Part shown: positions 21,148-45,786 of the stretch, in pieces
Layout: every line of letters starts with the position of its first letter
Position numbering within the stretch: position 1 is the first letter of the stretch
Source: Amoebophrya sp. A120
Taxonomy: Eukaryota; Protista; Dinoflagellata
Length of the DNA: 64,000 bases
Reading direction: 5' to 3'
NCBI GenBank assembly: GCA_905178155.1
Contig: CAJINV010000021.1
Span: 349,760 to 413,759 of the forward strand
Position numbers and translations under genes: made by a program
Notes under the pieces: generated by a model
The model's database searches: none
Seen by the model: the letters and a program-made list of their open reading frames with translations, nothing else
Told to the model about the DNA's origin: nothing

Positions 21148-24100
21148 ATGTCTCTGTCTCCCGGGCGTGCCGCCCGTGGAGACCATGACCAACTCCGAGA
21201 CCAGGTCGACCGGGCCACGGTACACTTGAAGACCAATCCGGATACCACCTTCTACAAAATCTCCGACCACCAGAGCGGCACCGATGGGTTGCAGAAAAAA
21301 CGCACCTGGAAACCGCGGCGGAGAAAGGTAAAAGAATATTTCAGAGCATAGCATGCATCGATGTCGATCTCGCTGCTTGGATGGCAGCTAGAAGAAGGGA
21401 AGAACAGCAGGAGGAGCGAGTTTTGAAGTTGCATGTTGGAATAAACAAGAAGGTAACTGAAACTGATACGAATTTTGAAAACCAAAATGAAATCTCCTTC
21501 GATAATATTAATTTAGGTCCGCGCCGCCTACCGTGTGCCTTCGGAATACGACGACACGGTGCCTTATGGATGTGTCAGGTTTGAAATCGTCAAAGTTGAA
21601 ATAGTTTGTCATGCATAAAACGGATACCAGTTAGACCTGCAGTGTGTAGTCGGTGCATGGTAAATTTACCCGGTCCTGGAAGCGAGTCTGTCATGCGGTT
21701 TAGGGCAAAAGAGCTGCCTTCTGTCATGCTAGTTAGCAGTCCAACTTTTGACCCTTGCCAGGACTATAAACTGCCTCCCGTGGGTCCTCTGCAATAGAGT
21801 CACTTTTTGTGCCGCAGTTTCTGCATTACAAATTATTTCAACTTTGACGATTTCAAACCTGACGCTTCCATATCCCTGATTGGGCCTCCTGGCAGCAGAA
21901 TTTTGCCAACAAGGCGGAGCTATGCATTGCAAAAGTATCGTAGTAGTATAAATCGCATGACAAATTAGCCCAGCAAGACAAACGGAATTTGTCATGCTGA
22001 TTTGGCTTGGAAACGGGATTTGTAATGCATGACTGCGATTAGTACGACTACGAGTACGATACTTTTGCACAGAATAGGAGCACGCCGCGGTTTCCATCCA
22101 GGCGGGCCTGATTGCGCAGGAGGCCTGGGAGGCCAGCATGCTGTCGACGACGGAAGAGGAAGAGGATGTGTACTACGGAAACCGACAGGATTTCAGTCAC
22201 ATGTTCCAGGAGAACCGGGTGGTCGGCCGACGAAGGTCCGGCGACCAGCCCGTGGATGACTACACCTATGAACAAGAACGGGCGGCTGGACCACGTCGGG
22301 CCCCCCGCGGCCCCGAAGAGTTTACTCGGAAGTACAAATCCGAAGGCCGCGCGCCGAGTCGGGAAGGAAGAAGTGGCGCCAGAGCGCCGAGTCGCGAGGG
22401 CGGCAATCGGCGGGAGTCGAACAGCCGCGACGGCAGAAGGCGGGGTGGACGGGAATTCAGCCAAGAGCCGGAAGCGTATGGACCAAGAGGCGCGGATCAC
22501 AAATTGCAGGACGCGGCGCGGTCACCACAAGGCGGCACACGGGGAAGCGGGCGCAGTGGTGGTGGGGGACAACATCATCCACCACAAGACCAAACAAGTG
22601 GTGGTCCCCCCCCGGACCAATCACCAGCTGGCGCGCCCGCAGGCTCGCACCGAAGTGGCAGCAGTCCGCGGGAACGAAGAGGCGATCGTGAGCACGGCTC
22701 AAGTCCGCACGGGTCGGAGGGCCGACGGGGAAGAAGTCAGGACCCGCACGGCGCAGCAGGAGATGACCGTCATGATCGCGCATCGAGAAGAGGCCGCAGC
22801 GGCGAGCCGCACGAGGATCGCGGCGGCAGTCGCGGACGGGGCGGCGGACACGGACAGCAGCACAGTCAGCCGCGAGGTCAGGGACACCAGCAGCACCCGG
22901 GCGGTCCCGGTCCGCCCCCCTTGTCGCCCCAACAACAGCTCGGGAGCCGCAGTCCGCAGCGGGGCACCCGCGGGGGTGGCGCAAGACAACAACTCGCCAG
23001 TCCGCCCTCCGCCATGAAACAGTCCTACAACAACGGCATGGGGAGTCGCGGCGCGGGCGCCTCACCGAAAAAGGTTTCCTTGTTTGACAGTGGCGGGAGC
23101 CCGACCGCGACGACCAAAAAGTCCTACGCTCCGCCCAAGGATCCGGAAGAAAGGAAAGCGTGGGAAGAGGAGAAACAGTACCAGAACCGGTATGGAAGCG
23201 TCAGGTTTGAAATCGTCAAAGTTGAAATAGTTTGTCATGCTCATGCATAAAGTGCAGCCCTCAAAGTGCCTGTCTTGCAACGTAGGCAAGTGTTGAGGCA
23301 GATTGTAAGCCTGTTGAGGGGTAGAAACTACTGAGCTGCTAACGTAGCACGATTCCTTACCCAAACAGCATGACAAACTGGATTTTGGTTCTACCCAAAT
23401 TTGTCATGCGCCACTTACAAACTGGGCCACAACTTTCATCCATTTTATGCATTGCAAGTTAATATTCGAACATTGTCGATTTCAATCCTGACACTCCCAT
23501 AACCGGCGGGCCTCGGTCATGGAGCATCCGGAGATGGTGAAGGCGCGCGCTATCAAATGTAAAAATGTCTGGGTCTGGAAGAATGCAACTTGTCATGCTA
23601 AATCTGAAGCATGCAAAAATGAAAATCTGTGTTGCATGATTGCCAAAAGTCGTCAGGTTTTGACCAAGTCGGGAGGGAGTTTCTCATGCAGAATAGGCAT
23701 GAGAGAGATCGCGCAGAATCTGTCATGTTAGGTCCTGCATTCCAGACCTCATGGGTCATGGAAAAGCTGCATGACAGATCGCGCATTCTTCCAGACCCAG
23801 ACATATCTGCAGTTGATACGCGCGGACCTGATGCAATTCGTTATGCACAGCGACACGCAGGACATGCACGAAGTCCAGCAGCGGTTCGAGGAGTTCACCG
23901 ATTTTTTGACAAGACAAGCCTTCGATCGCTGGAACGTATCAGAAGGACAGAAAGCGGTGCTGAACCAAAATAACGTCAGGTATATATTTTCTTGAATCGG
24001 GTCAAGAAGTAAACGTAAAGTACTTTCTTTCATAATTTTCGAAGAGGATGAGGACTTTCCCCGCCGGCCTGCTGCCAAGAAGAAAACTTAAAGTATGTAG

Positions 24101-27100
24101 CAGGGCGGAATGACTTGTACTAGTACAACTAGTTCCAGCACAAGCATAAAAGTGCTGAAGAGGCACTCATGTGACCACGATGCACAACTCCAAACAGGAC
24201 ACAAATGCTGAAGGCCCAACAGGGCTACCTCCAAGAGCTGCAGTACCATCGCTACCGCGAGGGACAACGCCCCGGGGACATCCCAGGAACCGGTATGGTG
24301 ATGCCCGGCGAGATATCAACTGTAAAAATGTCTGGGTCTGGAAAAATTCATGTTTGTCATGCTTGTCTGGCATGACTCTTAAATCTGTCATGCACGTTAC
24401 CCAAGAGCTCCGTTTTTCTGTGATGCAAAAGCGCAGTTTGTCATGCAGAATAGGCAACACCTGGGAGCTGAGAAACTTCTCATGCTGAGTCAGCATTTGC
24501 AGCCTCAGCATGAGACGCTACCCAGCATCACAAGTTCCCAGACCCAGACATTTTTACTTTTGATACGAGAGCTACAAAATCGATACCGGCGGTGCCGCGA
24601 AGGACGAAGTGGTCAAGGCGTTTGTCGATGGACAGACCCAGGGCATGAGCAACGATGGTATGATGATATCATCACGACACAGAATTAATACTACAAACTC
24701 AAACAGAAAGATGTAGCGAAATAAAGAACAAGGTCATGATCGTGGCGTTCCCGTTTTCATATCTAAAAACCCGTCGATTAACAGTAAGAAGGCAAGACAT
24801 GTGATGACGCAAAACAATAAACCTCCATCCACCACAGGTGCAAACGTGATCTTGTACGATGCCCTCACTGTCTTCACCCTGGACGAGCAGGAGCTAATTC
24901 GCATGATCATCGACGAGCGAGTGCACCAACTGCAGATCTACGCGCCGGGGAGGAAAGGCCGGGGGTCGAAGGAAGAGGAGGAGGAAACCGTGTCTCTGGA
25001 CGAACTGAATTTCGTCAAAAGTATAAACAAAAGATAAAATTAAAATTATTGCTTTCGTTGTTCTCTTGATGCATGCTGCTAAGGTCTCTGCGGTTTTGGA
25101 ATCTCTTCACAAACTACAGAAGATCATGGGAAGATATTCGGCCGCCAAAGGACGATGGCGCTCCATGATGCCGGCCTGTGTCCTTAAGTCAGCGACCACG
25201 GGCCAGTTTTTCTATTAGAAAAACTGGCCTGTCTGCATCATCTTTCTATAGTTACTATAGAAAGATGATGCAGACAACGATCCTTCCTCGAAACATCAAA
25301 TAATCTGATCTACTAGACTACACAACTCCTTCACAGACGAGCTGATTTCGTGGCAGTTGAAAGCAAAAACGCTGGAGGAAGAATACGGCAAGAAGGTGCA
25401 GCGATTCCAAGACTTGGTGGACGAGCTCCGCGCCAAGGTCGAACAGCTCGAGAACGTGGAGATCGTGGAGCGCGACCAAAGAATCGAAGAACTGCAGTCC
25501 GACACGGAGGACCTAAAACTCAAAATTGACGAGGTGAAAATGGAGGCCGAAGCGGAAAAGTTTGAGTACTGAACCGTGTGTCGTTCTTTCCTGATTTTTG
25601 TTTGCAATGACGGTTGTGTTCTTGGCAACAGTTACGTCTCTGCAACGCCGATGGTAAAAATCATGGATGCGCATGCGGCTGCGGGGGCCTGATCCCACTT
25701 GAATGATAACACGAAGATCACAAAAATGAATTCAGGCTCGAATCGAAGGTCAGCGAGAAGCAAATGGAGATTGACCTGCTCAACAAGCAGCTCGACGAAC
25801 TTCGCGCCGGGCTGGATCCCAGCAAGGTTTCCAGCGAAAGCGAAAAGGCGCAGACGGACAGCGAGGAAAAAGCCAAGCGAGAAGCGGAACTGTATCTTCG
25901 TTTTTTCATGTGTGGTAGAATGTTGATGCTAGCGGAGAGTCCGAGGACTTTCATCTTCATGCTGTGCATGCCTGATCATGGTTGTAATCGTGATGCCAAA
26001 GGCTGCGCAGAAAGATACTTAAGTGAAAACTTGTCCGAACTACAGAACCCTTCTCGCCGAGGAGCTGGTGGCGTGCAAGGCGAAACTAGCCGACGCGGAG
26101 TTGGAGATTGCGAGATTGCGTGCGGAAATGGAGCAATCCGTTCAGAACGCCAATGCAAAAGCTAGGCGAGATTCCGGCGGCCAAGTGGACGATGAAGAGT
26201 TCGCGGCCATGCGCAAGGAGCTGGAAGACGCGAAGAGGGAGTTGGAGAGGATGAAAGTACAAAATATAACGTGTGGAGGTGTTGGGCTGGTTTTGATTTG
26301 ATATTAGATGACGAGGATTTATGTTGTGTAGTACGTCCTCATCCTCTGTGTCAGTCTCGTGCTTGAGCATCACGTTCTTGAGCAACTCTGTTTTCATCTT
26401 CAGCAAATGTAAATGAAACACGACAAACGCCCGATTATTTTATGAAACACCACCTTCCAGACCCTCCTCCTCCAAGAAGAGGAGTTGCGCCGAAAAGCGG
26501 AGGACATCGCTGACAAGTGGAAACTATGAATTGCAAAAGCATCGTACTAGTAGCAATTGCATTACAAATTGCCTCAGCATGACAAATGGAATTTGTCATG
26601 CTGTTTGACCTTGGGATGTAGATTTGTAATGCATAACTGCAATTACTATGAGTACGATACTTTTGCACTGGATAGAAACAGGACGTGGAGGCGCTGAAGG
26701 GCGAGAACGACCGGTACCGCCAACGGCTGGAGTCCCAGGACGCCGAGATGCGGAGTTTGCGGCAGAAAATCACGCAGTTGGAGATGGTCGAGCAGGAGCT
26801 GCTGCAGCAACTCGCGGAGATCAACGCGCTCAAGGACGTGGGGGAGACGGGGAAGGCGTTCAAGGGCATGATGCGGAAGCTGGGCGTGAAGTCGGGCGGC
26901 ATATGACAGTGCGCAACCCCCCCCCTCCCCCTCATTTGTATTGCAGGAACAGCAATACAAACGCCAGCGACCCTGGAGCTTGTGCATTACAAATTTATGT
27001 ACCTAGTACTGAAGTTAGTACTATTTGGGCTTTGGAAATTTGTCATGCAAACAGTGCCACGGGGATGAACATGAAGCGGCTGGATTTCTGATTTAGCATG

Positions 27101-28426
27101 GCAAATGAAGGGGAGGGGGATTTGTGCACTGTCATAGGGCAACCGGCTGAACCGGAAGGTGTTCGAGCGGCTCTACATCGACGCGTTGGACCGCATGGAA
27201 CGCGCCGCGCGGCTGAACCAGACGAAGCTGAACGAGCAGCGAAACAACTGGGAGATGATTTTGGGTGCGCGGGACCTGTACGGCGACAATTTCCTCCCCA
27301 CCGGGCGACCGCCCGCAAGCGACCACTTGATCGACGCGTTCCGGTCGCTTCCCGACCGGAGTCTGGTGGCCGCCTTACCCGCGGACGACTATTTGTACAT
27401 GTTCACCACCCCCCTTGGCGGCGCCACCGGCGGCAACGACTACGCCGGCGCCTACCAATACAGCACGATCGGGCACAGTAGCACACAATACGGAACAATG
27501 GGCGGGTATGATCCACAAAAAAGACCCATCTTGATCTTCCCCATTTGATTTGCCATGCATACATGCATCAAAGTAGCCTGTGTTTCTCATGCAAAAAATG
27601 GATCGGGTTCGGGATGGGTTTTTTTCCAGCCTATAACAGGTCCAGTTCCAGCTCGTCGACAACCATCAATCGGCGGCCGCGACTCCGGGCAACTCGGTCC
27701 CTGTCCCCGTCGGCGTTGCTGCTCGCGGCCGCCTCGGACTGGACGCCTCTGTCGCCGTCCGCGCGCGCACAACCACTATTACCCCCGGAAGAACGCCGGG
27801 AGCTGCGGACGAAGCGGCACATCATTTCCGCCGAAAACGAGTCCGCCACGGTCGCCTCCTCGACCACAGCCGGCGGCCATGCCACGATGTCGACAATCCA
27901 CGAGCAAAACCAGCAACACACGCGAACCATTGGGGGTTCCTCATCCAGTAGCTCCTCTTCGAGTCATGCGAACAAAAAGATGGCGTCGCGGACAACAAGC
28001 GGAGCTGCGAGGATGGTGGAGCGAACATCAAGATCACCGCCGATACGACTACCAATTCCCGCGAGTGCGACGATTTCCGCGAGCAGTGCTTTATCAAATC
28101 GTGAGCGGATTCCGGGTTCGATCAAGGTCGGATCCCCGAGGGCGCATTTGAACGCGATGATGGGCGACCGGCAAATGCACAGTCCCCGGACCGTGGCCGG
28201 GTTCGAGCGCAGCCCAAGCAGCGGCCCACGACCATCTTCGCCGACAAGAAGGTTCTTTACCTCGAGCAACGGGAAGAACCACGACTACAACGGCGAGGAC
28301 AATTCCAACTCGAGCGGGGTTGTCAACCTCACCCGGTTTGCGAATGCCGGCGACTCCATGTACTCCTCCCGGCACAAGCTGAAAAAACCCAGGTGTCAAC
28401 ACTGCGGACACAAATTGACGCATTAA
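21148..28426 (+). CDS. Large coiled-coil/low-complexity hypothetical protein with 8 introners and several canonical introns
   Basis: In-frame joins DDTVP|DWAS, KAE|HAAV, QNR|RASV, KARA|DLMQ, PGE|SYKI, DKWK|QDVE, SGG|NRLN, MGG|SSSS; E/K/L-rich heptad exons at 25357-26900. Confidence 0.72.
21565..21872. mobile_element. Introner, family D
   Basis: tatggatgtgtcaggtttgaaatcgtcaaagttgaaata / tatttcaactttgacgatttcaaacctgacgcttccata; flanks tgcct/tccct. Confidence 0.93.
21921..22076. mobile_element. Introner, family B
   Basis: tatgcattgcaaaagtatcgta / tacgatacttttgcacagaata; perfect direct repeat ggagc. Confidence 0.95.
23191..23501. mobile_element. Introner, family D (interior inverted relative to 8923, 16054, 21565)
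   Basis: tatggaagcgtcagg...cctgacactcccata; perfect direct repeat accgg. Confidence 0.95.
23551..23818. mobile_element. Introner, family A
   Basis: tatcaaatgtaaaaatgtctgggtctggaagaatgc / gcattcttccagacccagacatatctgcagttgata; perfect direct repeat cgcgc. Confidence 0.95.
24314..24565. mobile_element. Introner, family A
   Basis: tatcaactgtaaaaatgtctgggtctgg / ccagacccagacatttttacttttgata; perfect direct repeat cgaga. Confidence 0.95.
25201..25276. repeat. Two abutting perfect palindromes (14-bp and 23-bp arms, 1-nt spacers)
   Basis: ggccagtttttcta-t-tagaaaaactggcc (25201-25229) directly followed by tgtctgcatcatctttctatagt-t-actatagaaagatgatgcagaca (25230-25276). Confidence 0.95.
26525..26674. 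mobile_element. Introner, family B
   Basis: tatgaattgcaaaagcatcgtact / agtacgatacttttgcactggata; perfect direct repeat gaaac. Confidence 0.95.
26902..27136. mobile_element. Introner, family E (single copy here)
   Basis: tatgacagtgcgcaacccccccctccccctcatttg / caaatgaaggggagggggatttgtgcactgtcata; flanks cggca/gggca. Confidence 0.9.
27507..27635. mobile_element. Introner, family I (degenerate)
   Basis: tatgatccacaaaaaagacccatc...gatgggttttttccagcctata; resembles 61040-61154; flanks gcggg/acagg; join restores frame. Confidence 0.7.
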
Positions 28427-31348
28427 CTGTTGTACCAACTAAGTACCTACTGAGCGGATGTGGAGTTGTACCAGCAGTAGGCGTAGTAGTTCAGTGAAGA
28501 TGGTGAAAACCTTACTGGTGACGAGTATAGGATACGTCTTGTTCTCAAATTGCATCTACTGTAGTTGTAAAATTGATTTCACTTCTCAAATTTAACATCG
28601 AAAAGCAAAAGTGCATTTGCCTTTTCTGCGAAATAAATCCAACGTATAGATAACCTGAGTTCATGGTAAAGGTTGAATAATTGTGATTGTCAATGTACAA
28701 TAAGCAACTGTGCGAGTGAAGCCTTGCTTTGCTGCGTACTAGCATGAAACAATGTATTGGCCTTCTTGTTTTGCTATATTCTGTTTCATTACAACCATGT
28801 ACACCGACTGTCGTGTAACAGCGTGCAATGTTTCCATTCCAATATCAACGAAGCAACAGTCTGACTGACAGAAACAATTCTGGTTCATCGAAAAGCAAGT
28901 GTCGACGTAATCCACCGAGATCATGGCTGCGGTACCTATTCAAGCCTATGTAGTGGTTGAAACTACGAATGCGATGTAAGCAATGTGTTGGCTATTGTGG
29001 CCGTTGTATTTTATTTTCGACATCAAAGCTGCTGCAAGTTGGCAGTGAGCTGAGTACCTGCGGGCAGGCAGTTCGGATCTTGAAAAACACGACTATGCAA
29101 GTGTTCCTCTTTTTCCGTCTTTTCTTCCTTCAGTTGGCGAAGCCGTTGTGTGCACGACCTCCTCCATGACCGAGTATCTGTACAACGGCAGCCGGAATAA
29201 AAGCACAGGGGCGCGAAGGCGTTGCCCTTTGGCCGAACTGCAGAAGTGTGAGGACGCCGGCGACGCCGGCGGCAACTGCTTCGGTCGCCTACCTTCGCCC
29301 CTAATAAACGAGCCCCAAGGCCGCCGGGCGTTTTGGGGCCGTCCGTGCCCCTCCGCGCAAGTTTGGCGGGCTGCCCGTGCACCACTTGCCCCGCGGGTCC
29401 CAGAGAAAACAAAGGGCCGCGGCGTTTGCCTGCTAGCTACCCGCCGGCGCGTTTGTGTGTGCCAGGCCGGGCCCCTGGTTGTCGGCTATGTGGCGCCGAA
29501 GCGGTCGGGGATCTGTGTGAACGCTATAGACAAGGCCTCCGAGCGGTGCGAAACCAATGCGGGCCGCAGCTGACGCGTGTCTGGCTCTGGGCTTGGCAAC
29601 CTGAAGGGGGACCCGCGTGGCAGGTTCGCGGGGCCCCACTTGGCGGCTGCCTCGCGACGCCGGGGGCTTGCGGCCAGGTATCCGGGAAGGGTGGGCCAGC
29701 GGTTGTGGCCCGCTGCGCTTTGTGATCGCGCCGGCGCCCGGGTTTGCATGCAGGAATGAGATGCCGAGCGCGACAAATCGCACGCCGCTGGCGGGCTGGC
29801 GTCTCGTCATTCTTTCTGTGGCGGCCAGCGAGGGCGCCCATTGCAGGCTGGCGCGCGCGGGCCGAAGCTTGGCGCCGGGCGGGGCTTGCCTTCGTACGTT
29901 CTGCCCGCCGCGCGCCGGCCCCCGCTCGCAGGCTGGCACCGCTCGCGCGCCGCCCCGGGTGGGTGGTGCGATCCCCTCGCCGGCGCGACACGCGCTCGCC
30001 AGCCAGCGCCATCGGCGGCGCCCGCGTGCGTCCATGCGTGGAGGCGCGTGGCGGCGCTCGCCGATCCATCCTTCAGCGAACCGCCGGCGCCCTCCTGCCG
30101 CCCGCGCGCGATTCGTGGGAAAGCCAGCGACAGGACAAATTTACTGCGCGAAGGCCGGCAGCAATGAAATGGCGGCGCAGGTTCGTCCTTTGTGGTGGCT
30201 CGGATTACCGCGGGGAGAATTTCGGCGGAGGGCGCAAGCCTGCCCGCCGAAGCCCGCCTCTGCAAGCGTGCCGGCCCCTCGGGGCGGGCGGATTGCGTCC
30301 GCGCGCCCCCCGCCTCGCTCGCGGGCGCCGGCCGGCCGCAGCTTGCCCGGTGGCGTGGCCAAACCCCCCCCCGCCTCGCTCTTTGGCCGGGCCGGGGGGC
30401 CCACAGACACCCCGCCCCAGAGGCAGGCGCGCGGGCGTTGGTGTGCCGTGTTCCCTCCGGGGCCGAGCGGCTGACCCGCCCCCGCCTGGTGGCGGTGCAT
30501 GGCGCGTGTGTGGCGGGTGTGATTCGGGTCCGGCTTCATTCGAAAAGCCCCCCTCACATGGGGGCAGGAGGCCTTTGCGCCAGTCCACGGACGGACGCAC
30601 GCGGTGGCGCGCGCCCCCCGGTTGCAAAGCCCACCTCGGGGCCGCGGTCATGTCGCGTCGGCAGCCGGTATTCCCAGGAATCGTGGGCGTCGGTGTGTCG
30701 CGCTCATGCATAATTGCGACTGTGAGTCCAATTGTCATTGCTTTTTGTGGCGGAGGTGTTGGCCCGTCTTTCTCCGAGTTAGGATAGCGCCATGATATTA
30801 TGGCCCGTCCTTGTCATTGTTGCTACGTGCAAGCACGTGCCGCCCTGGCGGGTATACGCGGAGACCGCGTGCCGGGCCTGCCTGTGTTCGTGCCTGTGAG
30901 ATCGAAAGCTGCTAACCCTGGACAGTAGAGAGATCCGAGGAGAAAACCTGCTTTCCGGAGTAGTCTAGAAGTCAGTGTCAGAGTGCCTGTAGTTTCTAAA
31001 GTTGTAAGTAGCTTTGTGGCCACCTTCTGATTCGCTCATTCGATTAACACAGCACAGAGAGAAACCACATGTCCGTATTCTTAATGTTGGTGCAGCAGCT
31101 ACAATCGCGAGGTCATTCTCACCTTGTTCAGGTAGATGTTTAGTTGATGTAGTCTGTCTGTGCTTCTTTCTACGGTAGAAGTGTTTCTTGCACGGCGTGA
31201 TCCGGTCGTTTACGGAGCAAGACTCGACGTGCAGCACAGCTAGCCCCGGAGTCTCTTCGTTCACGTCACGTCCTCTCTTCTTAGCCGCTGCCACCTCGTG
31301 CGCCTATTCAAAAGCCCCAGAACCAGCACAAGGTCTATTTCTGCCTTA

Positions 31349-32907: not shown

Positions 32908-33942
32908 GTGTGGAGGAAGTTTTGGAATGTTGAACAAGTGATGCGTGATGAATACCTGCAACCGCAAAGTGGAAGTGGATCTATCTTGTTGCAACGTGAA
33001 CAAATTTTCTTTCACTGACGCAGTCCTCAAGTCGTAAGACCATGTATGAAGATAGTTGAAGTCGTAGATGCAGCGAAAGCGGACACCAGCTCGTCGGAGC
33101 AGTTAAATCCATGAGTAGCAACATCTTCGTACAACTTCTACACAGTGGCGCGTATGACAAACAGAAAATAACGATGAGAAGCAGCTCATGGCCTGCTTTG
33201 TGCAAGCAGCGAGATTGACCTCGGCGCCCGGGCGTCGTGCGGCTGTGGGATTTTTTTCGTGACAGGAAGATACAGAGATACTGAAATCCAAATCAGCGAC
33301 TTTATTAGCAACATCGTCACATCCCCTCGTCAAAATGTCGTTGAACATGATAGATTCGTACAATATCGTCGCCCACCCCCCACGCTCCTTCACCAGGAAA
33401 AGGAATGTTAGCATTATGAATTTTATCACGTCGACACTTCTTTCATCCTCCTCGTAACATATCGGTCCGGAATTCGTCCGCTCGCGATTGCATTCGGTCG
33501 TCGGAAATGGGCCGTTGGAGTAGAAGTAAATCCATTATTGTGATCGTTGTCATGTTTTGTTCCTTCTCTTCGTGTCACTATGTTCAATTTCCATCAGCTG
33601 ATCTCCGTAGTGTTTTGCAACTTTCGCTCAATACTTCGCGATTGTCCTCGTTTCGCTGGGTCGTTCGTCGCTGTCCAAGTGTTTCAAATCGCATAAGTTC
33701 TTGTGCACGTGCTGATACTCATCGTCATCGTTTTTATTAACCTAACCATGATTGTCGCGGTCTTTAGTTTTACACGGTTGCAGTTCTTGTTGTCCAGTGA
33801 AACAAGTAGATGTAGGTGAATGTTGGAGTTTGAAATTCCCATACCGCGCTTCACGTTCCCCTTTCTTGTGACCTTAGTTTGGGTCCAGCCTATGTCGCTT
33901 GCGACCACGTACTAGTTGTAGACATACAGGAAAATAAAAATT

Positions 33943-36900
33943 ATGATGGGTGTTGCAAGAACGTCAAAAAATCTTCCGCCACTGGCGGTCGCTACTTCCA
34001 TCATCTTCATCTGCCAGCACAGCTATGTCAGGGCTTTGAGCTACCAACCTTCCTCACTCCCTGGAGGTGACATCAGCGGGCAAGAAAAACCACAAGACGC
34101 AGCAGATGTGCTGACCACGCCCCGACTACGCGGCGGAGCTGGTACCGGGACAGCGGATCGCGTTTTAGTGGCGCCTTACGAGGCCGCGGACTACCAGCAG
34201 GAGGTGGAGTATGCCCAAGATGGCGACGCTGCGTTTTCCCCGGAGTCGGCACTGCTCGAGGCCGTGCCGGTGGACCTACTCGCTGGCTTTTTCGGGAATC
34301 GGGGAGGTCAAGCACCAATCTGGGTGCCGGGACTGTATAGCGTTCTCAAACGTTTTTACACTCTCAGCTGTAGTTACACGGATAATGTGTCACGCAAAAC
34401 TACCTGAAGCCGCCAAATGAGCAAGCTGCTTCGCATGACAAATTTATGAAGGGCTAAAAAACACGTATCTAAATCAGTGCCAAATCAAGCTTCCCCCTTC
34501 GACTGTAACTGTTGCTGTCCTTGCATTACATGCAACATATCATTATCATGTAACAGTTGAGAATGTATTAATAACGTTTGAGAACGCCATAAAATGCCAC
34601 CAGGCTTGGAGGGGTTGCTTCTGCGGCAGGCAGCAGGAAGCGGGGCTCCACAGGTCGTTCATATGTCGTTTGTATTTGATAGGGTTTGACTTCCTTTACT
34701 GCAGCAGATCTGTACGTTTCTTGTCCATTCTTTTTTTTTTTGATTTGCACGACCGTGGACAAAGAACGCTGCGGCCACCGTGTCGTGTAGTGCTGCCGAC
34801 GCTCGTGCTTTTTTGCTGCTACAATTCCTGCGACCATTGCACGACGAATATTAGAACGCAGTTTTTTTACTATCTTGGGTTGTATGTTCTTGCAACTACA
34901 CGGAACCTACACCAAGATGAAGATCAAAGTCATTATCATTAAAAATAAAAATGCACGAGAATTATAGCAGTTATGCTTTGGCGAGGCTTCGGCTTCGGCT
35001 TCTCTCGACTTCTAAAGCAGAAAGCTATAGCTAAAGGACAGAACTAGAAGTTCCACCAGCTCTGCTGGTAGTTGTTGGCTGTAGTTACCGTCACGTGCGA
35101 AGACCATGTTGGAAAGCCAAATTGTTTTACTCCACTACAGGTTGCAGCCTTCGATCCGCGGGTGCACCACCAATGCAAGCAGCTGGACGAACAAGGCCAC
35201 TTCGGTATGCAGCTGACAAAATTGTGTACCAGCCCCAGCATAGTCTGTCAGCAAGATAGGAATTATATTGCTACACAGGTCAAGCAACTTGAACTTGCAA
35301 CTTGTGAAGCCCCTCCCGCCATGACAGCCTACTGCTTGTGAGTAGGTAAGTTGGCCGTAGCGCAATCACAAACTCACCGATCTCCTATGTTAATTAGAGC
35401 AGGAAAACTTTGAGAACACTTCAGCGAAGACAGATCTGGCCTGCTGGGTAGGGGTACTACGTTTTTACCTTGGATTTTCTGCCCGGAAACGACAACGGGA
35501 CTCGACGACGTTACGGCGCTGAACGAGATGGCGAAGAAGCAGAACCCCGCGATGCGGCACATGCCCGACCTGAGCGCGCTCGCCTTGAGCGTATCAAGTG
35601 AAAAAAGTGTCTGGGTCTGGAAGAATACAAACTTGTGATGCGCATTTCAGAACACAGAAAAATCCTTCATGCATAGGCAGCAAAAGTTGCCCACTTTCTG
35701 TCACCAAAATCAGGGATTTGTCATGCGGATTCGGCATTGCGAACGCTTCTCGAAACCTGTGATGCTAGAGCTTCCACGCCAGACCTTCTGCGTCATGCAA
35801 AAACAGCGCGACTCTTCCAGACCCAGACACTTTTGCAGTTGATAGAGCGTCGGGAGTACCCATGCCTACGTCGTACACACCGGCGTTATGCGCGCGCTGG
35901 TGCGGCAGCGCGATTACGAGCTAGTGCAAGGGCCGCTTACGACTACCGACGCCGCTATCCTGGAAAACCGATGGGGCACCGATTTCATCCTCAAATCCTA
36001 CCCCGCGTACGTGTTCGGCGCTTCAGGCGGATCTTGGTTCTTGAGCGCGTTTTTCTACAGCAGCGAAGAGAACAACTCGGATCAAAGTCTGTTGGACGGG
36101 GACGAATTTGGAGTGCTTTACGGGCGGGATCTGCAGCCCAGTTTTACCGACCCGGCTACCGTGTGGAGCGCGTTCACGCAGCGTCACGGCGCCGGACCAC
36201 TACACGACTCCAAGCACGTCCTGAAGACGGGCGCGGGCGTGCTCGACCTGTTTCTCACCACCTCGCACCAGCAGGGGCTAGACGGCACGGGGCGCGAGAT
36301 GTCCGCCGACATGCTGATGGAGGTTTTCATGAATGCGAAAAAGTACGGCGGCCTGGCCCGCGTGTGGGCCAACTTTGTGCACCGCACGTACTTCCAGGGG
36401 CTAGAGCAAACCACCGACCCCACCGCGGTGCTGCCGCTCTTTGAATTTTCCGCGCCGCCGGACCAACTGCTGCGCAACAACACCCTGCTGCCGTACGTGA
36501 TCACGACCGTGACGTTGATGCGCGACATGGACTGCGCGCACCACTCCTGCAGAGACGACATGCCCTTCCTCGTGCAAGAGCACACCCCCTACGGGGTCGG
36601 GCAGCCGAACCTCGGTGACAACGAGGGCATCTACGGCTTTTTCCCAAGGCAGTGCCTGCAGCTCACCGCGGCCCCCCGGCTGGCCTACCGGCACATGACG
36701 CCGGCCTGGTCCGCCGCCTGGTCGTCGACTGTGCTGTCCGGACCGGTGGACGGACTGGTCCACAAAATCAATAGCCCCTTCTATCCTGAGTAAAAACGTC
36801 CCCACCTCCCCATAGTCCTCAAGATGCAAAAAAATCTGCTACGCAAATCCCTAAGCTTTGGCTGTCGCGCATGAGAAATTTTTTGGGTTCGCAGTGTAGT

Positions 36901-39900
36901 CGTGTTTGGCTAGTGCAGCGGCATCACAGATCCGCTTTGTCATGCTGATTCGAGCATCGCAAAGAAATCTCAAGTCACCACTAGAAAACGCCTCTCATGT
37001 GTCTCCGCATGAGACAGAGCGCTTTCCTTTTATTTGCGCACGCAGATTTGCATTACAACTTTGGGCCTGGGGCGGGGGCGGGGACGTTTTTACACAGGAT
37101 ACTTTCATCCGGGCCATGGCGAAAGACCTGCCAAAAATTATCACACAGAAATAAGCTGGCAGGGCATATTTGTATATGCAAAAATAAATACACAAAAAAA
37201 TCTGCGCTGCATATCCGAAACAGCATGCTATGGGGCCACCCATGACAAATTTCTGTGTGTGTTTATTTTTGCATTACAAATGTGCCCTGCCCGCTTTTTT
37301 CTCTGGGATAAAAATGCTCACCTACACCGTTCAGACTGCGGAAAACTCAGGTATGATTCCGGACTTTTCAGTATCACGTTTTCCACTTTGGTGAAGCTTC
37401 TATAGTTTAAAAAAAAATCCGATGCTTTGATGTTTTATTTGTGTGTGGCGGATCGATGGAAAAAGCTTGGTCTACTACTTCCAGGTTTTGAAAGCGGTGC
37501 TTCGTTCTCGGGTTGTTGTACTTCTAGATCAACTTAACAAAACATACAAGCAAGGTCAATATGTAAAAACGCAACAAATAACAAAGCGAGCAACACGACT
37601 GCCACCTCTAGATACTCCTTCAATTGCGGAGGCAAACCGGTTATGCATTGCAAAAGCATCGTACTAATACAAATCGCAATACAAGTTTTTTCAGAAGGAA
37701 AAATGGAGTTTGTAATGCTGATGTTACTAAGAAACAAGATTTGTCATGCATGGTTTTTTTTTTTTCATTGGGCCCCGCTATTTTTCGCATATAAATTCAT
37801 CACTAAAGCTAGGAGGATTTGTCATGCATGATTGCAATTAGTACGAGTACGATACTTTTGCAATTCATATCGGTACCTAGTCGGGGACGGGGGGAATGCG
37901 GATTCTACCAGCGTCCCGACCGCGTTGCGGCGCGGCATGAAACGTATTGTCGCAGTGCTCGCAATATCAAATACAATTGTATCGTACTAGAACTAGTATG
38001 AATGCATTACAAATTTCCTCAGCATGAGAAATAGAATTTGTAATGCGGATGTATCTTAACAAAAAAATTTGCAATGCATGATTGCAATACGAGTGTCATA
38101 CATTTGCAAAGCATACGCAAACGACGGCGGATTGAATGCGGATTTGCACGGGTACGCGAATCTGTCGGAGAGCCAGAAACGTCCCATCGAGAATTGGAGC
38201 TACTCCTCCTGCGACGAGGAACTGGTGCAGCAGGTGCCCTATCAACTGCAAATGTGTCTAGCTCTGGACGAAGGATCCAGCTTGTGATGCTGTCTTTGGA
38301 TTCTAAAAAAATCTGTAAGTATTGGATGACCAGCAAGAGGAATCCAGTTTGTGCTACGTGAAAAGGGTCTCCCTCATGCGGACTAGACATCAGGAAGCTT
38401 TTTCAAAATCTGTGATGCTAGGGCAGGCATTTCAGGCGTCACGGTTCATGCAAGATATGCCTGACAAACCTGGCAATACCAATATTATTCCAGACGCAGA
38501 CATATTTGCACTCCATATGCCCATCAGTCTGCGGGCCTTGTTTGGTTACACCGACAATCACGTGGATCCGAACACGAGCGAGTCTGAAAAGCTGGTATTT
38601 ATTTTTTGTCAATGTCATGCAGTAGCAGTACTACTATCGTATCTCTGGCCGCTCCTGGTGCTGGTGGTCATGGTATCTATAATTAATCACAAATTAATTT
38701 TAATACTTGTTCAACAATGTTGAAGATGGTGCCTTCATCCACTATTGGCTTTTCAATTTCAATTTTGCATAGTAGCGAATTTTTGACGGACCACGATGAC
38801 GACGATGATCACGCCGCCACGGAGGTAGTTTTTCTGCGAAGGCGAAGATGAACAAATGTTGAAATATGAAAATCAAAATTCTTTTATAATTCAGTTTGAG
38901 AAGTTCGGCATGGTCTACACGAAAAACCAAGTTTTCGCCAAGGCTGACCTTTGTCCCGTGGTCCGCTGGCTCGTCGCGATCCGAGAAAAGAATGGCTACG
39001 TCGCGACCTTCGAACTCACCACGGTCCGAAACGACCACTTTGGGATTCCAGAGGGACACGTCGTGGTGATCACCTTCATGATAGGCAGTACAAACTTCCC
39101 GATCACCCCCCCCGTGCATGATCTACAACATGAACGAAATGCATCACAAATTTCGCCAAAAAACTTGGCGCATGCTTTGTCACTTGTTATGCTGAACAGG
39201 CTCGAAAAGGCCGGTTTTGTCATGCAGAAACAGCATTGCAAACGTAGTACAGGAAATTTTTTACTGTGGATACATGCTGCTGTTCCACATTTTGCCCCCC
39301 GCGCCGACCCAGGGGGCTCTGAATCTCGCCGTGCCGCCCGGCTACGCGGCTTGGTTCCAGCGCGGTGGCATCGGCGACCAAATCGAAACCTTCCCCGTCG
39401 ACGTCTCGGGCGACCGAGACAGCAAAGACGAACGTACAACGTGGTGCTTCAAAAATTTAATTTTTATTTGTGGTCTCATTAGATATAGTTATAGATTTGA
39501 ATTTGAAACAGAAACGCGGAACTACCTTTAAGAAAAGCGAGCTGCACGATCCTTTTGCAATGCATAAAATCAAAAATAAATATAAAACGCAGGCGGTGAA
39601 GAGATGCGAAAGGGCATGGCCGCTCAGATCTTTGAAGATTCTGACGAGGCCGCGGCCGACAAATTGGGAGGAGCGCCGGAGGATCCTCAGACACAGGCTG
39701 CACACGCGGCGATGGAACGCATCCGCCTTGTTCCGCAAGAAAACCTGCCGAAAATCCAGATGCAGCTGCACGCCGCCACCAGCGTATCCAGGGAAAAAAC
39801 TGTAAGTGTAACTCTGTAGGAAGAGGAGCATCACAAATTCGTTTTGCATTACAGGGGAAACCTGTGATGCGCAGCTACTACGTGGAAACGCGTATGAACA

Positions 39901-40465
39901 AAGTGGTCTATGACGCACATCCAGCACGACAAGCGGAACTCTTTCGCATTTTCTGCATCACAGACTTACACTTATGCATTTTTTTTCTCGCATACAGCGT
40001 CCACTGGGTCGAGGACGTCGTCGTCAACAGTGCGCTATCCTGTGCAAAAGTTGTATCGTACTCGTACTTCTTCTAAGTGCGTTCATGCATTACAAATCTT
40101 TCTTTCAAGGCAACTCCGCATTACAAATTTTAATTTGTAACGCTAAGTCAATTTGTAATGCATAAATACGAGTACGATACTTTTGCAGTTCATATGCGCC
40201 GAAATTCGCGCGGGCCTATCTGAAATCGCACATGGCCAGTTGGATCGCACTGCACCCGGACAACGAGAAGCACTTTCTGTTCGACATCGCTGCGGTGAAA
40301 TCGCAGGTGCGCTCGGGGGTTGCCGTCATCGTCAACGGGCACCTTGAGGTGGAAAAGGCCGCTGCGTCGTCGATAGTGCCAACCGCGTCGTCGATACTGC
40401 CAACCGTGTCCTCGGCTTTGTCGACAGTGTCAAATGTCGTGTCACAACTGCCAGGTTGGCACTAA
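33943..40465 (+). CDS. Patatin/cPLA2-like (lyso)phospholipase-family protein, paralog 1, with 10 introners
   Basis: Reconstructed protein has LSVGSTHAY, nucleophile elbow GASGGSW and VGDGG (catalytic Asp motif); colinear with the paralog at 41672-45786; hydrophobic N-terminus. Exons between 34657 and about 35430 are unresolved. Confidence 0.75.
34336..34591. mobile_element. Introner, family C
   Basis: tatagcgttctcaaacgtt / aacgtttgagaacgccata; similar to 1730-1968; flanks gactg/aaatg; join PGL|PPGLEG. Confidence 0.85.
35592..35844. mobile_element. Introner, family A
   Basis: tatcaagtgaaaaaagtgtctgggtctggaaga / tcttccagacccagacacttttgcagttgata; perfect direct repeat gagcg; site empty in paralog 2. 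Confidence 0.96.
36782..37101. mobile_element. Introner, family F
   Basis: tatcctgagtaaaaacgtcccc / ggggacgtttttacacaggata; flanks ccttc/ctttc. Confidence 0.93.
37139..37310. mobile_element. Introner, family G (long TIR, single copy here)
   Basis: tatcacacagaaataagctggcagggcatatttgta...tacaaatgtgccctgcccgcttttttctctgggata; perfect direct repeat aaaat; join LPKM|LTYTVQT matches paralog LIPMTTYTVQT. Confidence 0.93.
37642..37869. mobile_element. Introner, family B
   Basis: tatgcattgcaaaagcatcgtact / agtacgatacttttgcaattcata; flanks ccggt/tcggt; join NR|YLVGDGG. Confidence 0.93.
37965..38115. mobile_element. Introner, family B (diverged)
   Basis: tatcaaatacaattgtatcgtact...catttgcaaagcata; perfect direct repeat cgcaa; join VLA|NDGGLNADLHGY matches the paralog. 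Confidence 0.9.
38240..38517. mobile_element. Introner, family A (diverged)
   Basis: tatcaactgcaaatgtgtctagctctgga / tccagacgcagacatatttgcactccata; perfect direct repeat tgccc; join QVP|ISLRALFG matches the paralog. Confidence 0.93.
39082..39272. mobile_element. Introner, family H
   Basis: taggcagtacaaacttccc...ggaaattttttactgtggata; flanks catga/catgc; right end shared with 62281-62434. Confidence 0.85.
39785..39994. mobile_element. Introner, family J (single copy here)
   Basis: tatccagggaaaaaactgtaagtgtaa / ttacacttatgcattttttttctcgcata; perfect direct repeat cagcg; join ATS|VHW matches paralog ATSIDW. Confidence 0.9.
40036..40194. mobile_element. Introner, family B
   Basis: tatcctgtgcaaaagttgtatcgtactcgta / tacgagtacgatacttttgcagttcata; perfect direct repeat tgcgc. 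Confidence 0.95.
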
Positions 40466-41671
40466 GTGCAGTATCTCTTGTTACAAGTAAGTTTACAAGT
40501 ACAAGAAGTTGTCTCGTCAGAAGTTTTTCAATTGTTCTCGCAAGAATATTGTCAGATCACAAAGAAATCAGAATCACTCCGCTATTTACCTCATGAGCAA
40601 ATTCATTGAAATTCAAGATCATCGGTGTCAAAGAACTCGAAAAATATCCTCAAACCGCTTGTAATTGAATGGCGGCGTCGACATGCCTTGTCTATTTTAT
40701 ATTTATATGTTTGTCGTTCTTCTCGTCGACCGTTTATAGATGATTCTACTCGCTTGCACTTTTTCTTTTACTCCTCATTGTTCCGTACTACACTACTATC
40801 TCCTGGTATTAATGTTGACACTCGACAGTGGCAGCGATTTTTGCTATTGTGTGCCTATCAAGAACGGAAGTTTATTCGTGGTCACACTGTATAATATCTT
40901 TCAGTTTCAAAAAAAGTTGTACATGAAACGAGACTTTTTACTTCAGACGCTGCCGTGTCTGCTCGATAACATTGATTTGTCACGATCAGAAAATGTTTCT
41001 ACAGTTGGACTTGGATTGGAAAAGGAAAAAATATTAATATGGTAGAAGACTCCTGTCTTAGTCTTTCATGTCCCTGTGTCAACGATACTTGGCATAGTTG
41101 TTTCGCACCCAAACTAAACTGCTCTTCGTCCTTTTCCAAGTCTTGAAGAACGCGAAAACATTGTCGTCCATTTCAGATTTTTCAGTCGTTGACGTTTCTC
41201 GTAATGGTGTGGTATAATCGTCCTCGTCTTCGTGCAAAAAATACAAAAAGAATAAGAAGATGATAAGTACGTCCATCGTGGTCTTTTGGTACTTTCGTTT
41301 TTTCGTCCGTTTTGTGATCGTGCGTTTGTTGCTTCTGTGGTAACCTGGTACGTATTACAGGTACGTAAAAGCACCTGCTTCCTTCACTTTACTCCCAGGC
41401 TGCTATCGTCCCCAGTTTAATACCGTAATAGTAGCACCAGGATTGCCACCAACTCGCAAAGTGATAGCGGTACTCACAAAGGAGCAATAGAGGTACCAGT
41501 AGCCATCTTTTCGATCGACAAATATACTCAATATTTACTTAACTTTTGCTTTTGCTACTAGTTTTTTCAGCGGCGAAAAGTAGTTGTACACGACACCTCT
41601 GCGCCGACGTTCTTCCCGTCGTACGTTGCTCATCGTTGGAAGTATAGTTTGGAAAGAAAAAAGTGACGAAA

Positions 41672-44600
41672 ATGGGCGTGAACGTGATCAGTTGTCTCGT
41701 AAGCGATGGCCGCTCCCCGAGCCGGAAACCAAACTACGGAGCGCCTTGTTTTCAGCGAGCTTCATCATCTTCGAGCAATCAGAACAATCATGAACCGGAC
41801 ACAGCAGCAGCAGCTGTCCCTAGTACCCGCCGCAGCGGTCGTATCTGTGCTTCTGAGATGAAGAAATCGGGTTGCAGCTCTACTGTTGGGGCCGGCGCGT
41901 GGTTTTCTCTTTCCGTTCTGTGCAGCGTTGTTCCCCATCTAAATCTCGTTGAAGCGTACAAAATGCAAGCGGGAAAAATCGGAACAAAATCCAAGTCCAC
42001 AGCGGGGGCTGCCGCAAAAAAGCAAGCGTACTACAAAAAAATGCAGGCGGGGGCCGGCGCGGCAACCAAAAAATCCAAATCGAAAGCGGGAGCTGCAGCA
42101 CAGAAGCAAGCGCACAAAAAAATGCAGGCAGGGGAAGGAACGCAATCCAAGTCCAAAGCGGGAGCTGCAGCAGAGAGCCAAGCCGCGAGGAGGGTGCAGA
42201 CGGAGATGGGACGAACGAAATCGAAATCCAAGTTCAAGGCGGGAGCTGCCGCGGAGAAAGTCAAAGCGGAGAAAGTGAAAGCGTTGGCGGGGGCCCGAAC
42301 AACCGAAGCCAAGTCCTCCAAAGCGGCCACTGCAAAAACGAAGCGCAGTAGTACTATCACGTCCACAACTAAGACGAGAACCACGTCACTGCTGCAGCGC
42401 AAGCAATCCGAGAGGGAGAAGCAGAAGGAAAAGGAGAGGCACCTGCGTCTCCTGGTTTCCGCGCTGAAGGATGATGATGCAGCAGCGTCGACTTCCAAGA
42501 ACAAAACTGCCGATGAAGGTGAACAAGACAGTGCTTGCTGCGGGGGCGGAGTAAATGACGAAAGCACCAGCGAAGACGAGGACGCAACAAACCCAACCAA
42601 CGAAACCGTTAAAGCGGTCACCAGTCCAAGTCGTGGGGGAGGTGGTGGTGGTAGTACGACCTCTTTTTCGCCCAAAGACAAAGATGTCGATACCACTTGT
42701 GAAAACGAGGCCGGTGCCGAGATCGCGGCCCCTTACTGTCCGGAGATTGATACAGAGTGTCGCGAGCTGGACGGGAAGAACTTTTTCCAGGCCGATCCGC
42801 TCATCGGGCAGGAGGAGAATGCGAGCGAGCTGAACGAAAACACGAAGCAGCAGCACCCCCCGATGCGGCACATGCCGGATCTGAGCGCGCTGGCGCTCAG
42901 TGTGGGCAGCACGCACGCCTACGTCGCGCACGTCGGCGTGATGCGGGGGCTTGTGCAGCTGCGCGACGACGAGATTACGCAGTTGTTGGACGAGAAACAC
43001 GGCGCAGCTGCTGGGGAAAGCAACCACGCGGCGGAGTCCTTATTTCCCCCGGAAGACGGCGACACCAGCGCGGAGAAGCTGAAGACCCTGCTCGGAGACG
43101 ACAATTTTATGCTGACCTCCTACCCGGCCTACCTGTACGGGGCCTCGGGCGGGTCGTGGCTCGCGAGTCTGTTGTTCTACAGCAGTGGGAATAACACGGA
43201 CGGTTCTTTATTGAACACGGCGGACTACAAAAGCGACGACGCGCAACAGGTGTGGGACGACTTTAAGGCACTGTACACGTCGACACTCTCCAAAACGGAC
43301 ACCTCCGCGAATGACAATCTGAAGACCAACGCGGGCCTGCTCGACTTGTTTCTCACCAGCTCGCATCAAAAAGGCGTGGACGGCAAGGGCTCGGAACTGA
43401 ACAGCGATCTGTTGTTGGACATTTTGCTGACGACCCCGAAGTATGGCGGCCTGGCCCGGTTCTGGGCCAACTTTGTGAACCGGGCGTTTTTTCAGGCGGT
43501 GGAGCAAACCGTGGACAAGGACAAGACTCTGCCCCTGTGGCACTTTCCTTCTCCCGAAGACGAGCTGCTGCGGAAAAACACTTTACAGCCCTACGTGGTC
43601 ACCACCGTCACTTTATTGCGCGAACTACTTTGCGGGACCGCGTGCGAGAAGGAGGATTTTTTCCTGCTGTTGCAAGAACACACGCCGTATGGCGTCGGGC
43701 AGGTGAACCTGGGGAACAACGAAGACCTATACGGCTTCTTTCCCCGCAAGTGTCTGCAGTACACGATGCCGCCCGAGGACAACTCCGGCGACCGGGGCCG
43801 GTACCGGCACATGACACCAGCCTGGTCCGCGGCCTGGTCCTCCACCGTGTTGACCGGCCCGGTGGACGGCATCTACCAGAACCTTGAGGGATTTTTGAAA
43901 CAAGCGCTCGCACATCTAATCCCCATGACGACTTACACGGTGCAGACCGCGTATGACGACGATATCGACAGTATAGTACATGCTGCATCAAAGTTAGATG
44001 AATACGAAAAAGCATGAGATTAAGAGCGTGCACATATAAATGCAAGGAGTCTACTACTTGGCGTATAGCAGCACCAATTTTCTTTAGTTTTACACAAAAA
44101 ATTGACTTCGATGATTAAGATTAAGATTGACAACGACAAAACACTCCATGATACAGCCCCTGCGCCCAATTCCGTCCAAAATGCGGAGCGGTACATGGTC
44201 GGCGATGGCGGGTTTGTCGATTCCACGAGCATCCCGGCCTGCCTCCGCCGCGGAATGAAGCGGATCGTCGCCGTTATGGCGGAAGACGGGGGACTGAATG
44301 CGGATTTGCACGGCTATGCGAATTTGATGGAAGAAGGGGACGACGGCTCGCACGTAGAAGATGAAGGTGATGATGAACAAGATCCTCCTCCCGCTGGAAC
44401 AACAACCTGCAACCTCGAGTTGGTTAACCAAGTACCGATTAGTCTGCGGGCGCTGTTTGGCTTCTCCGACAACTTTCTCGACCCGAAAACTGGGCTGTGG
44501 GACAAGCTGATCCACTATCAAATGTAAAAATGTCTGGGTCTGGAAGAGTGCGCGATTTGTCATGCAGCTTTTCCATGACCCATGAGGTCTGGAATGCAGG

Positions 44601-45786
44601 ACCCAGCATGACAGATTCTGTGCGACCTTTCTCATGCCTATCCTGCATGAGAAACTGCCTCCCGACTTGGTCAAAACTCGACGGCTTTTGGTAATCATGC
44701 AACACAGATTTTTGCATGCTGCAGATTTAGCATGACAAGTTGCATTCTTCCAGACCCAGACATTTTTACATTTGATATCCACGACTATGGGATGGTGTAC
44801 ACAAGAAACCAAGTGTTTCACGTATCCTGAGTAAAAATGTCCCCACACCAGAGTCAAGATGGGAAATCTGCTAGACAAATCGGCAAGCTTTGGGAGTTGT
44901 GCATGACAAGTTTCCGTCTGTAGTATAGTGGTGCATAGCAAGGCAAGCCGCATGAGAAAGCCGATTTCTCTTCCTGTTGACAGCATTACAAATGTCGAAT
45001 CACTATTGGAAATACCTCTCATGGGGATGCGCATTACAAATGTTCCTGTCATTGCGCATTTGCATTACAACTCTGGGGTGGGTACGTTTTTACACAGCAT
45101 ACCACGAGGACGACCTGTGCCCCGTAATTCGCGCGCTGGTGGAAAACGAACACAATGGGTACGTGCAGACGTTCGAACTGACCACGGTGGAAAACGAGCA
45201 CTACGGCATCCCCGAGGGACACAATGTGGTGATTACCTTCTTCCTCCTCTACGCAACTTTACCCCCGGCGCCGACCCAGGGGGCGCTGAATTTGGCCGTG
45301 CCGCCAGGGTATGCGGAGCTGTTCAAGGACGTCGCGGAGTTAGCATCTTACGACATCGCCGTCACTACCCACCGGGGGTCGGTCGACGAGTTCGCCGCCG
45401 CCACGGGTATGCTCTCTACCTTCATCACCAGCGCGGACGAGCATGTGGCCAGCAGCGGCGCCAACTCGGGAAGTACAACCGTCGTGAATGCCACCGAAGA
45501 GCTGGCCAAAATCCAGCTGGTACCGCAGGCGGACTTGAACTTGACGGCGCAGGTGCAGAGGCAGCTGCACCGGGCGACGAGCATCGACTGGTTCGCAGAT
45601 GTGGTGGTCAACAGTGCGAAGAAGTTTGCGCGGGCGTTTTTCCTGTCGCACATGGCCACGTGGATCACGCTGCACGAGGAGAACAAGAAGCACTTTGTGT
45701 TTGACGCCGACACCGTGAAAAACAGCGGCGTTGTCCTTACCCTGCCCCTGCCGGTTGATGAGGCGGAGACGGACTCGTCGGTGTAA
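41672..45786 (+). CDS. Patatin/cPLA2-like (lyso)phospholipase-family protein, paralog 2
   Basis: ORFs 41663, 44102 and 44977 joined by a GT-AG intron (about 43971-44087) and two introners; motifs LSVGSTHAY, GASGGSW, VGDGGFVD; hydrophobic segment AWFSLSVLCSVV followed by a K/A-rich repeat. Confidence 0.8.
41959..42300 (+). repeat. Imperfect coding tandem repeat, about 4 units of roughly 25 aa (KKMQAG...KSKSKAGAAA)
   Basis: Repeated aaaatgcaggcggg...aaatccaagtc...gcgggagctgc visible in DNA and translation. Confidence 0.8.
44516..44777. mobile_element. Introner, family A (near reverse complement of 23551-23818)
   Basis: Perfect TIR tatcaaatgtaaaaatgtctgggtctggaaga / tcttccagacccagacatttttacatttgata; perfect direct repeat tccac. 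Confidence 0.96.
44823..45101. mobile_element. Introner, family F
   Basis: tatcctgagtaaaaatgtcccca / tgggtacgtttttacacagcata; flanks tcacg/ccacg; join QVFH|EDDLCP matches paralog QVFAKADLCP. Confidence 0.93.

Follow-up and report, generated by a model that had tools for sequence, protein, structure and literature searches.

How are introns removed that lack GT–AG ends and that can lie within a gene in either direction? The question is raised by a stretch of 64,000 nucleotides (nt) from Amoebophrya sp. A120 (contig CAJINV010000021.1, positions 349,760 to 413,759) – hereafter the window, to which all coordinates refer – in which scans identified 33 short elements with TAT...ATA termini, amounting to 7,481 nt, and one further, interrupted copy. 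In A120, 65% of introns lack GT–AG, and how they are removed has been a standing question since 2021. A first-pass annotation of the window had observed that the same element is tolerated in both orientations in plus-strand genes, had reasoned that spliceosomal introns are polar, and had arrived at either hairpin-defined RNA cleavage and ligation or transposase-like excision from DNA. The observation is partly confirmed here, and the interpretation as a whole is partly supported; as to the mechanism, we favour, at a probability of roughly 55%, a putative relaxed spliceosome that reads signals carried by the inverted repeats of the elements.

Two exons of the window are 100% identical to named Amoebophrya sp. 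A120 proteins, which identifies the host genome, and the elements are the published introner elements of A120 – a known class in a known host. Farhat et al. 2021 (PMC7789003; statements on this and the other cited papers refer to the parts of each that were covered) described the A120 introner inverted repeat as TAT, seven variable bases and then As, accompanied by 3–5-nt direct repeats, non-canonical ends and repeated families; the mean length of the non-canonical introns is given as ~240 nt, and the splice position relative to the hairpin, in the legend to their Fig. 3, as variable or unknown. The window elements share with these the TAT-N7-A repeat, the short direct repeats and the non-canonical ends. 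They are 115–320 nt long, with TAT at 32/33 left and 33/33 right ends and A at position 13 in 31 and 32, respectively, and all have a 5-nt target-site duplication (TSD) except the copy at 6749, which is counted in the 33-element tallies despite showing no clear duplication. Across families, both ends follow a common TAT-S-N-A-N-T-G-Y-AAAA, to whose A-run families C and D fit less well, and an internal motif is found in 98 copies within 28 elements (6.5 kb) versus 26 in the remaining 57.5 kb. Terminal inverted repeats (TIRs), a TSD of fixed length, small size (lengths of 240–324 nt), the lack of a long open reading frame (ORF) and random orientation are all traits of the type seen in miniature inverted-repeat transposable elements (MITEs), and the elements are likely non-autonomous DNA transposons. 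The elements are thus already known in A120, and introners working in either orientation are already known elsewhere; what goes beyond the account in PMC7789003 is an orientation split near 50:50 and a single inferred cut register.

Both orientations within plus-strand genes

In family A, the element at 44516–44777 (minus strand, TSD TCCAC, with a near-perfect end stem) is, as first noted, a near reverse complement of that at 23551–23818 (plus strand, TSD CGCGC), matching it at 91% over 268 nt (E 8e-107). Orientations were assigned from interior-only alignments, with 55 nt removed from each end (the best of 200 shuffles scored 1). Orientation 1, on the minus strand, comprises 752–1022, 5833–6114 (with an imperfect TSD), 6380–6645 and 44516–44777; orientation 2, on the plus strand, comprises 23551–23818, 24314–24565 (TSD CGAGA), 35592–35844 (TSD GAGCG), 38240–38517 (TSD TGCCC), 61635–61887 and 61950–62213. 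The earlier list of directions stands for nine of these ten copies; 24314, which it had grouped with 44516, points like 23551, with same/reverse scores of 42/2 against 23551 and 2/56 against 44516. Family D likewise occurs in both directions, the copy at 23191–23501 (minus) being inverted, as claimed at first pass, relative to that at 21565–21872 (plus) in the same transcript, and also relative to 16054–16359 (plus). In family B, the plus-strand copies at 21921–22076, 26525–26674 and 37965–38115 show the common orientation, 37642–37869 (plus) is a longer copy with a weak orientation score, 57632–57801 (plus) lies in a kinesin gene (Pfam Kinesin), and 40036–40194 (minus) is inverted relative to five other family B copies.

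That the hosts are plus-strand genes with restored frames is borne out by GT–AG joints in the same RNA contigs, long plus-strand frames and deposited models. Removal of each element with one copy of its duplication leaves open plus-strand frames of 1657 amino acids (aa; the gene holding 752, 5833 and 6380, for which no deposited protein was found), 1340 aa (the gene at 20951–29014) and 416 aa (around 61635 and 61950). One alternative, that copies with a length divisible by three are simply read through, was considered and rejected: all ten window copies of family A contain stops in all three plus-strand frames.

The even split of orientation against host strand that had been anticipated at first pass appears in a larger sample from one other assembly, drawn as at least 144 loci by exact match to one 30-nt family A end, which an estimated ~460 stretches hold. 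These gave 129 distinct elements, with a perfect 5-nt duplication in 114; five were dropped for more than two duplication mismatches and 23 for a non-positive coding score or short flanks, leaving 101. Relative to the host strand predicted from the flanks, orientations divide 52:49 (n=101), or 40:33 at a stricter margin, and an independent strand call from AT skew gives 34:34. The strand predictor is correct for 27/30 window elements (26/26 after an equal filter), and element pairs on the same contig agree on strand in 16 of 19 cases. The 101 copies are predicted coding insertions, and what is counted in them is orientation, not removal. Orientation independence is to be expected where the two ends of an element are inverted copies, and it is not without precedent. 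The methods of PMC9860276 allow for opposite-orientation insertions. Neither a statement of it for Amoebophrya nor a 50:50 split was found in the covered parts of the literature searched, and the covered sections and term passages of PMC7789003, including parts of its supplement, contain no mention of element orientation.

Removal is visible in RNA contigs from runs X1–X3, which represent one sample whose RNA nature is guessed and whose GT–AG joints show spliced molecules. These contigs hold at least 11 non-canonical joints, each skipping an element plus 5 nt, and they document removal of families B and D in both orientations. Family B copies are skipped at 21921 (joint 21915→22077), 26525, 37642 and 37965, and the inverted copy at 40036 by the joint 40030→40195 in the same transcript as 37965, so that a single transcript loses family B in both directions. 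For family D, 21565 is skipped by the joint 21561→21875, and 23191 lies where a contig piece ends (at 23184). Orientation 2 of family A is removed at 38240 by the joint 38234→38518 and at 35592, where contig pieces begin at 35845, in agreement with the deposited protein P0004. Further support comes from length arithmetic in the first host gene (20951–29014, plus strand), which contains seven introners and eight GT–AG introns: its model adds up to 4,784 nt, exactly as long as the RNA contig, with a 1,340-codon open frame, and this equality implies the removal of 23191 (family D), 23551 and 24314 (both family A). The canonical acceptor at 24197 was chosen to fit and both ends were taken from the record, which makes the arithmetic strong, not parameter-free.

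For orientation 1 of family A, the deposited model P0003 skips exactly 267 nt at 44516 – A120 gene models being derived from transcript alignments (PMC7789003) – and the resulting frame aligns through the site with an RNA-supported paralogue that has no insert there. No joint for 5833 or 6380 was found among the RNA joints listed, contig depth there being low. As judged from the deposited model, the paralogue, the frames and the stops in all frames, these copies are probably removed as well. The raw RNA runs X8 and X9 yielded 28 and 614 aligned reads, mostly partial, which leave the host genes uncovered.

The proposed register of the cut

Where the two copies of a duplication differ, the base present in mRNA shows which copy is kept. 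Seven imperfect duplications are informative in this way – five through RNA joints (26902, 37642, 39082, 21565 and 17876), one through the ends of RNA pieces together with P0004 (34336) and one through a deposited model together with a homologue (57632). Upstream position 1 is kept at 26902–27136 (TSD CGGCA/GGGCA, joint 26897→27138) and at 37642 (CCGGT/TCGGT), and position 2 at 21565 (TGCCT/TCCCT, whose upstream positions 1–2 are both present in RNA); upstream positions 1–3 are kept at 17876–18118 (decayed TSD GCGCT/CTCCT, joint 17873→18122) and in the family C introner at 34336–34591 (GACTG/AAATG, RNA pieces ending at 34333). At 57632 (GTGTT/GTGCT), the deposited protein P0001 keeps upstream position 4, and its A25 homologue P0002 also has Phe; at 39082–39272 (CATGA/CATGC, joint 39076→39273), position 5 is taken from the downstream copy. 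All seven fit a cut after duplication position 4, N|TAT...ATA|NNNN, an outcome with a chance of 0.03 under a uniformly random register (calculated by hand, post hoc). We infer a single register – one base before TAT, four after ATA – and hence a cut that is asymmetric in the direction of the transcript.

A fixed register was not found in the covered parts of the literature searched, and figures of the PMC7789003 supplement may bear on it; Table S4 of that paper shows T at +2 and a variable +1 in all nine predominant non-canonical motifs of A120. Imperfect duplications from the other assembly carry no register information without RNA; by eye, many of the variants are synonymous. A search of PDB sequences with L126, a copy in orientation 1 that has a mismatch at position 4, returned no match.

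At the inferred register, 31 of 32 elements begin N-TAY, and none of the 32 has GT and AG at the cut (one does at any register). That these dinucleotides are recruited from the target site was considered and rejected, as neither is enriched at element ends. The canonical introns of the window, 22 in all (13 from listed RNA joints, two from length arithmetic and seven from deposited models), have donors that are mostly GTAY, with A at +3 in 19/22 and a pyrimidine at +4 in 18/22, this being T in 11. Given the register, the element start N-TAT resembles a canonical GTAT/GTAC donor without its G.

A clear polypyrimidine tract is lacking at the canonical acceptors, as is an obvious branch motif; the sequence there is A/C-rich (…ACTACAG, …CACAG), and 14 of the 22 have an A at −7 that resembles the A of ATA, a likeness noticed after the fact. 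The GT–AG intron at 27506–27639 starts with GTATGA, ends with ...TATAACAG, and contains the internal element motif, its two ends being weakly complementary; this may be an introner that happened to gain canonical ends from its target site at the same register.

The termini themselves are close to symmetric. The sense 3′-terminal 30 nt are 0.90 identical between orientations, as against 0.89–0.90 within them, and the 5′ ends are alike; since the inverted termini are near-identical both ways, whatever donor, branch or acceptor signal the repeat may contain is present in either orientation. The first-pass annotation had named, as an outcome contrary to its own inference, equivalent motifs on both strands used by the normal spliceosome, and the structural half of that – the equivalence – is what the terminal identity bears out.

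One trace of polarity was seen within the family A repeat. Among the 101 copies, 39 have a variant at position 15 in the sense 3′ end alone and 11 in the 5′ end alone (p 9e-5), with the same bias in both orientations (18:4 and 21:7), so that it follows the gene and not the element. The bias is weaker with the AT-skew strand call (20:9, p 0.06) and absent from 67 neighbouring elements, mostly of other families; as position 15 is one of ~30 positions inspected, it serves as a lead only. A 3′ signal lying ~19 nt ahead of the cut may be its source or, alternatively, transcription-linked repair.

A putative relaxed spliceosome and its rivals

The favoured reading would run as follows. Transposon-like elements would insert without regard to gene direction, and their inverted repeats would show identical end signals both ways; a putative relaxed U2/U5/U6 spliceosome would then read those signals and remove the elements from RNA, taking the 5′ end as N-TAT – a canonical-type donor without the G – and setting the 3′ cut by distance from the U-tract/ATA rather than by AG, with a branch predicted inside the 3′ inverted repeat. 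According to PMC7789003, snRNP27 was not detected in A120, while nearly all other spliceosomal proteins and U2, U4, U5 and U6 are present, and loss of snRNP27 goes with a preference for U at +4 (PMC10581693).

The earlier claim that only the symmetric termini matter agrees well with the orientation split, with element lengths spread evenly modulo 3 (29/26/28 of 83) and with the lack of GT and AG at all 32 cuts. The further step – from polarity to a mechanism other than the spliceosome – does not follow, as inverted ends (0.90 identical) give the same polar signals in both directions, and introner classes of Polarella glacialis splice in either orientation with spliceosome-type sites.

Several points weigh against a relaxed spliceosome. 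The main difficulty is the lack of enrichment both of G at +1 (22/83, against 0.30 for G in the flanks) and of AG at the 3′ end (5/83; background 0.07), which means that the spliceosome would have to do without either of its conserved end contacts. No U1 snRNA was detected in A120, and Farhat et al. themselves make the case for a mechanism other than the usual machinery (PMC7789003); no U2-complementary motif common to the families was seen by eye in the 33 elements. The very stable stems of young copies (z −12.9 at 44516, and −9.8) would hide both ends, and the tests of stem selection discussed below are of low power. As for the register, its upper bound rests on one element (39082) and its position-4 bound on one deposited model (57632), and in none of the families do informative mismatches occur in both directions.

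Comparable systems exist. In P. glacialis, introner-like classes 1, 2, 3, 6, 7, 8 and 10 make introns in either orientation, and these are said to resemble the introners of Aureococcus anophagefferens (Roy et al., bioRxiv 10.1101/2020.10.14.339549). As in A120, these are transposon-derived introns with target duplications; unlike those of A120, which need neither dinucleotide, they obtain GT/GC/GA and AG either from the duplication or from the end of the element, and an orientation bias is present in classes 6, 8 and 10, whereas none is seen in A120. Fritillaria borealis, too, has TIR- and TSD-bearing non-GT/AG introns on a genome scale (PMC13326754; PMC11282704), and in Fritillaria it is the U2-type spliceosome that takes out introns without GT/AG ends (PMC13326754). 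Fritillaria, however, keeps its U1 snRNA and prefers the ends AG–AC and AG–AT, whereas A120 has no detected U1 and draws its end dinucleotides from arbitrary target DNA.

The rival that survives best, which we regard as possible and yet clearly less probable, is a non-spliceosomal RNA nuclease–ligase, which would be directed to its sites by the end stem or, through protein binding, by the TAT-N7-AAA ends and the internal motif, along the lines suggested for euglenids. The nonconventional introns of that group resemble those of A120 in their TIR stem, TSD-like repeats, non-canonical borders and probable MITE origin, and they are released as circles, with a purine/pyrimidine consensus at their borders (PMC11282704). 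Such an enzyme would need neither GT nor AG, and the undetected U1 (PMC7789003), the strong stems of young copies and the concentration of the internal motif in the elements would all suit it. In tests of low power, however, the A120 elements gave no sign that RNA stem pairing is under selection. The sense strand shows no excess of G-U over A-C mismatches (35 vs 43 in 33 elements, 54 vs 55 in 67 elements; 31:37 outside position 15), no folding advantage over the antisense strand (p 0.48) and no end-to-end covariation beyond family membership (153 vs 153.0 expected, for pairing at positions 4–10), and the position-15 bias runs towards an A-C mismatch rather than a G-U pair. For three copies removed from RNA, no in-register pairing of the outer 14 positions is predicted; two of these copies retain inner stems, and the third, 39082, has no predicted end stem (fold z −0.56) and is nonetheless removed exactly. 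Moreover, it would be a coincidence that N-TAT matches the canonical donor. These points on stems, covariation and donor match tell against stem-guided cutting more than against a protein reading sequence; together with the transcript-directed asymmetry of the cut, they speak against the hairpin-defined cleavage of the first-pass annotation.

Still more tentatively, a second RNA-removal machine might operate beside the spliceosome, ignoring GT, AG and direction and reading the TAT-N7-AAA ends at a fixed, transcript-polar offset of one base before and four after. If so, every insertion would become a harmless intron, whatever its target site and orientation, and the rise of tens of thousands of new introns would be accounted for.

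It seems improbable that the symmetry is illusory, with family A spliced poorly, or even not spliced, in one of its orientations. Copies oriented like 44516 showed no RNA joint (5833 and 6380, at low depth, among the joints listed); against this stand the even split of predicted coding insertions by both strand calls, the stops in all frames, a deposited model – built from transcript alignments – that skips 44516 exactly, and the removal of families B and D in both directions. Excision from DNA by a transposase-like enzyme before transcription, the other first-pass option, would suit the transposon anatomy and the loss of exactly one duplication copy and is very improbable: in DNA run X5, unique sequence lies at an even depth near 43, contigs run from the flanks into the element ends and 0/9 listed RNA joints are supported (contigs drop rare variants), a cut tied to the element predicts mirror registers where all seven cases fit one transcript-direction register, and, to our knowledge, the parasite has no separate germline nucleus, so that excision would be inherited.

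For the relaxed spliceosome, as for its rivals, the 50:50 orientation and the inferred register make the removal mechanism sharply testable. Were the register to hold across the genome, the variety of splice dinucleotides that has been reported would for the most part be target-site sequence rather than signal, and the A120 spliceosome would work without both conserved end contacts.

Host genes and further insertions

The second host gene (33943–40462, plus strand, A120 protein P0004) and the third (41672–45783, plus strand, A120 protein P0003, carrying 44516 and 44823) are tandem paralogues without a Pfam family, with nine introners in the one and two, at different sites, in the other, a distribution that points to gain after duplication.

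The family D copy at 16054–16359 lies inside the canonical intron 15981–16512 (joint 15978→16511) and has an AGGT-containing duplication, and the surrounding intron is removed whole in both RNA contigs. The B-like element at 6749–6948 has flanks that prolong the inverted repeat rather than form a direct repeat, and removal of the element plus 5 nt keeps the frame. Inner inverted repeats are nested within two elements, at 37175–37275 within 37139–37310 and at 1748–1947 within 1730–1968. In the other assembly, positions 1501–2472 of L062 hold a family A element of 972 nt with a perfect duplication, which interrupts a frame that we take to resemble the largest subunit of RNA polymerase; a search of this single long copy for an autonomous, transposase-coding relative found no internal ORF above ~85 aa.

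The interrupted element of the window is a family D copy (8923–10949, TSD ATCCA) split by an insert of ~1.7 kb, which has a flanking duplication of ~17 nt and a terminal (CT)n run and looks like a retroelement remnant. Two ORFs of this region gave no Pfam match, nor did the window give any match in an Rfam search; much of 8370–10585 lies at 2–4 times single-copy depth in the DNA run. Lastly, two intergenic segments, at 29150–30900 and 59000–60100, are GC-rich (~0.67–0.68) and T-skewed without being similar to each other, and RNA contig cover is sparse at 29.2–30.6 kb.

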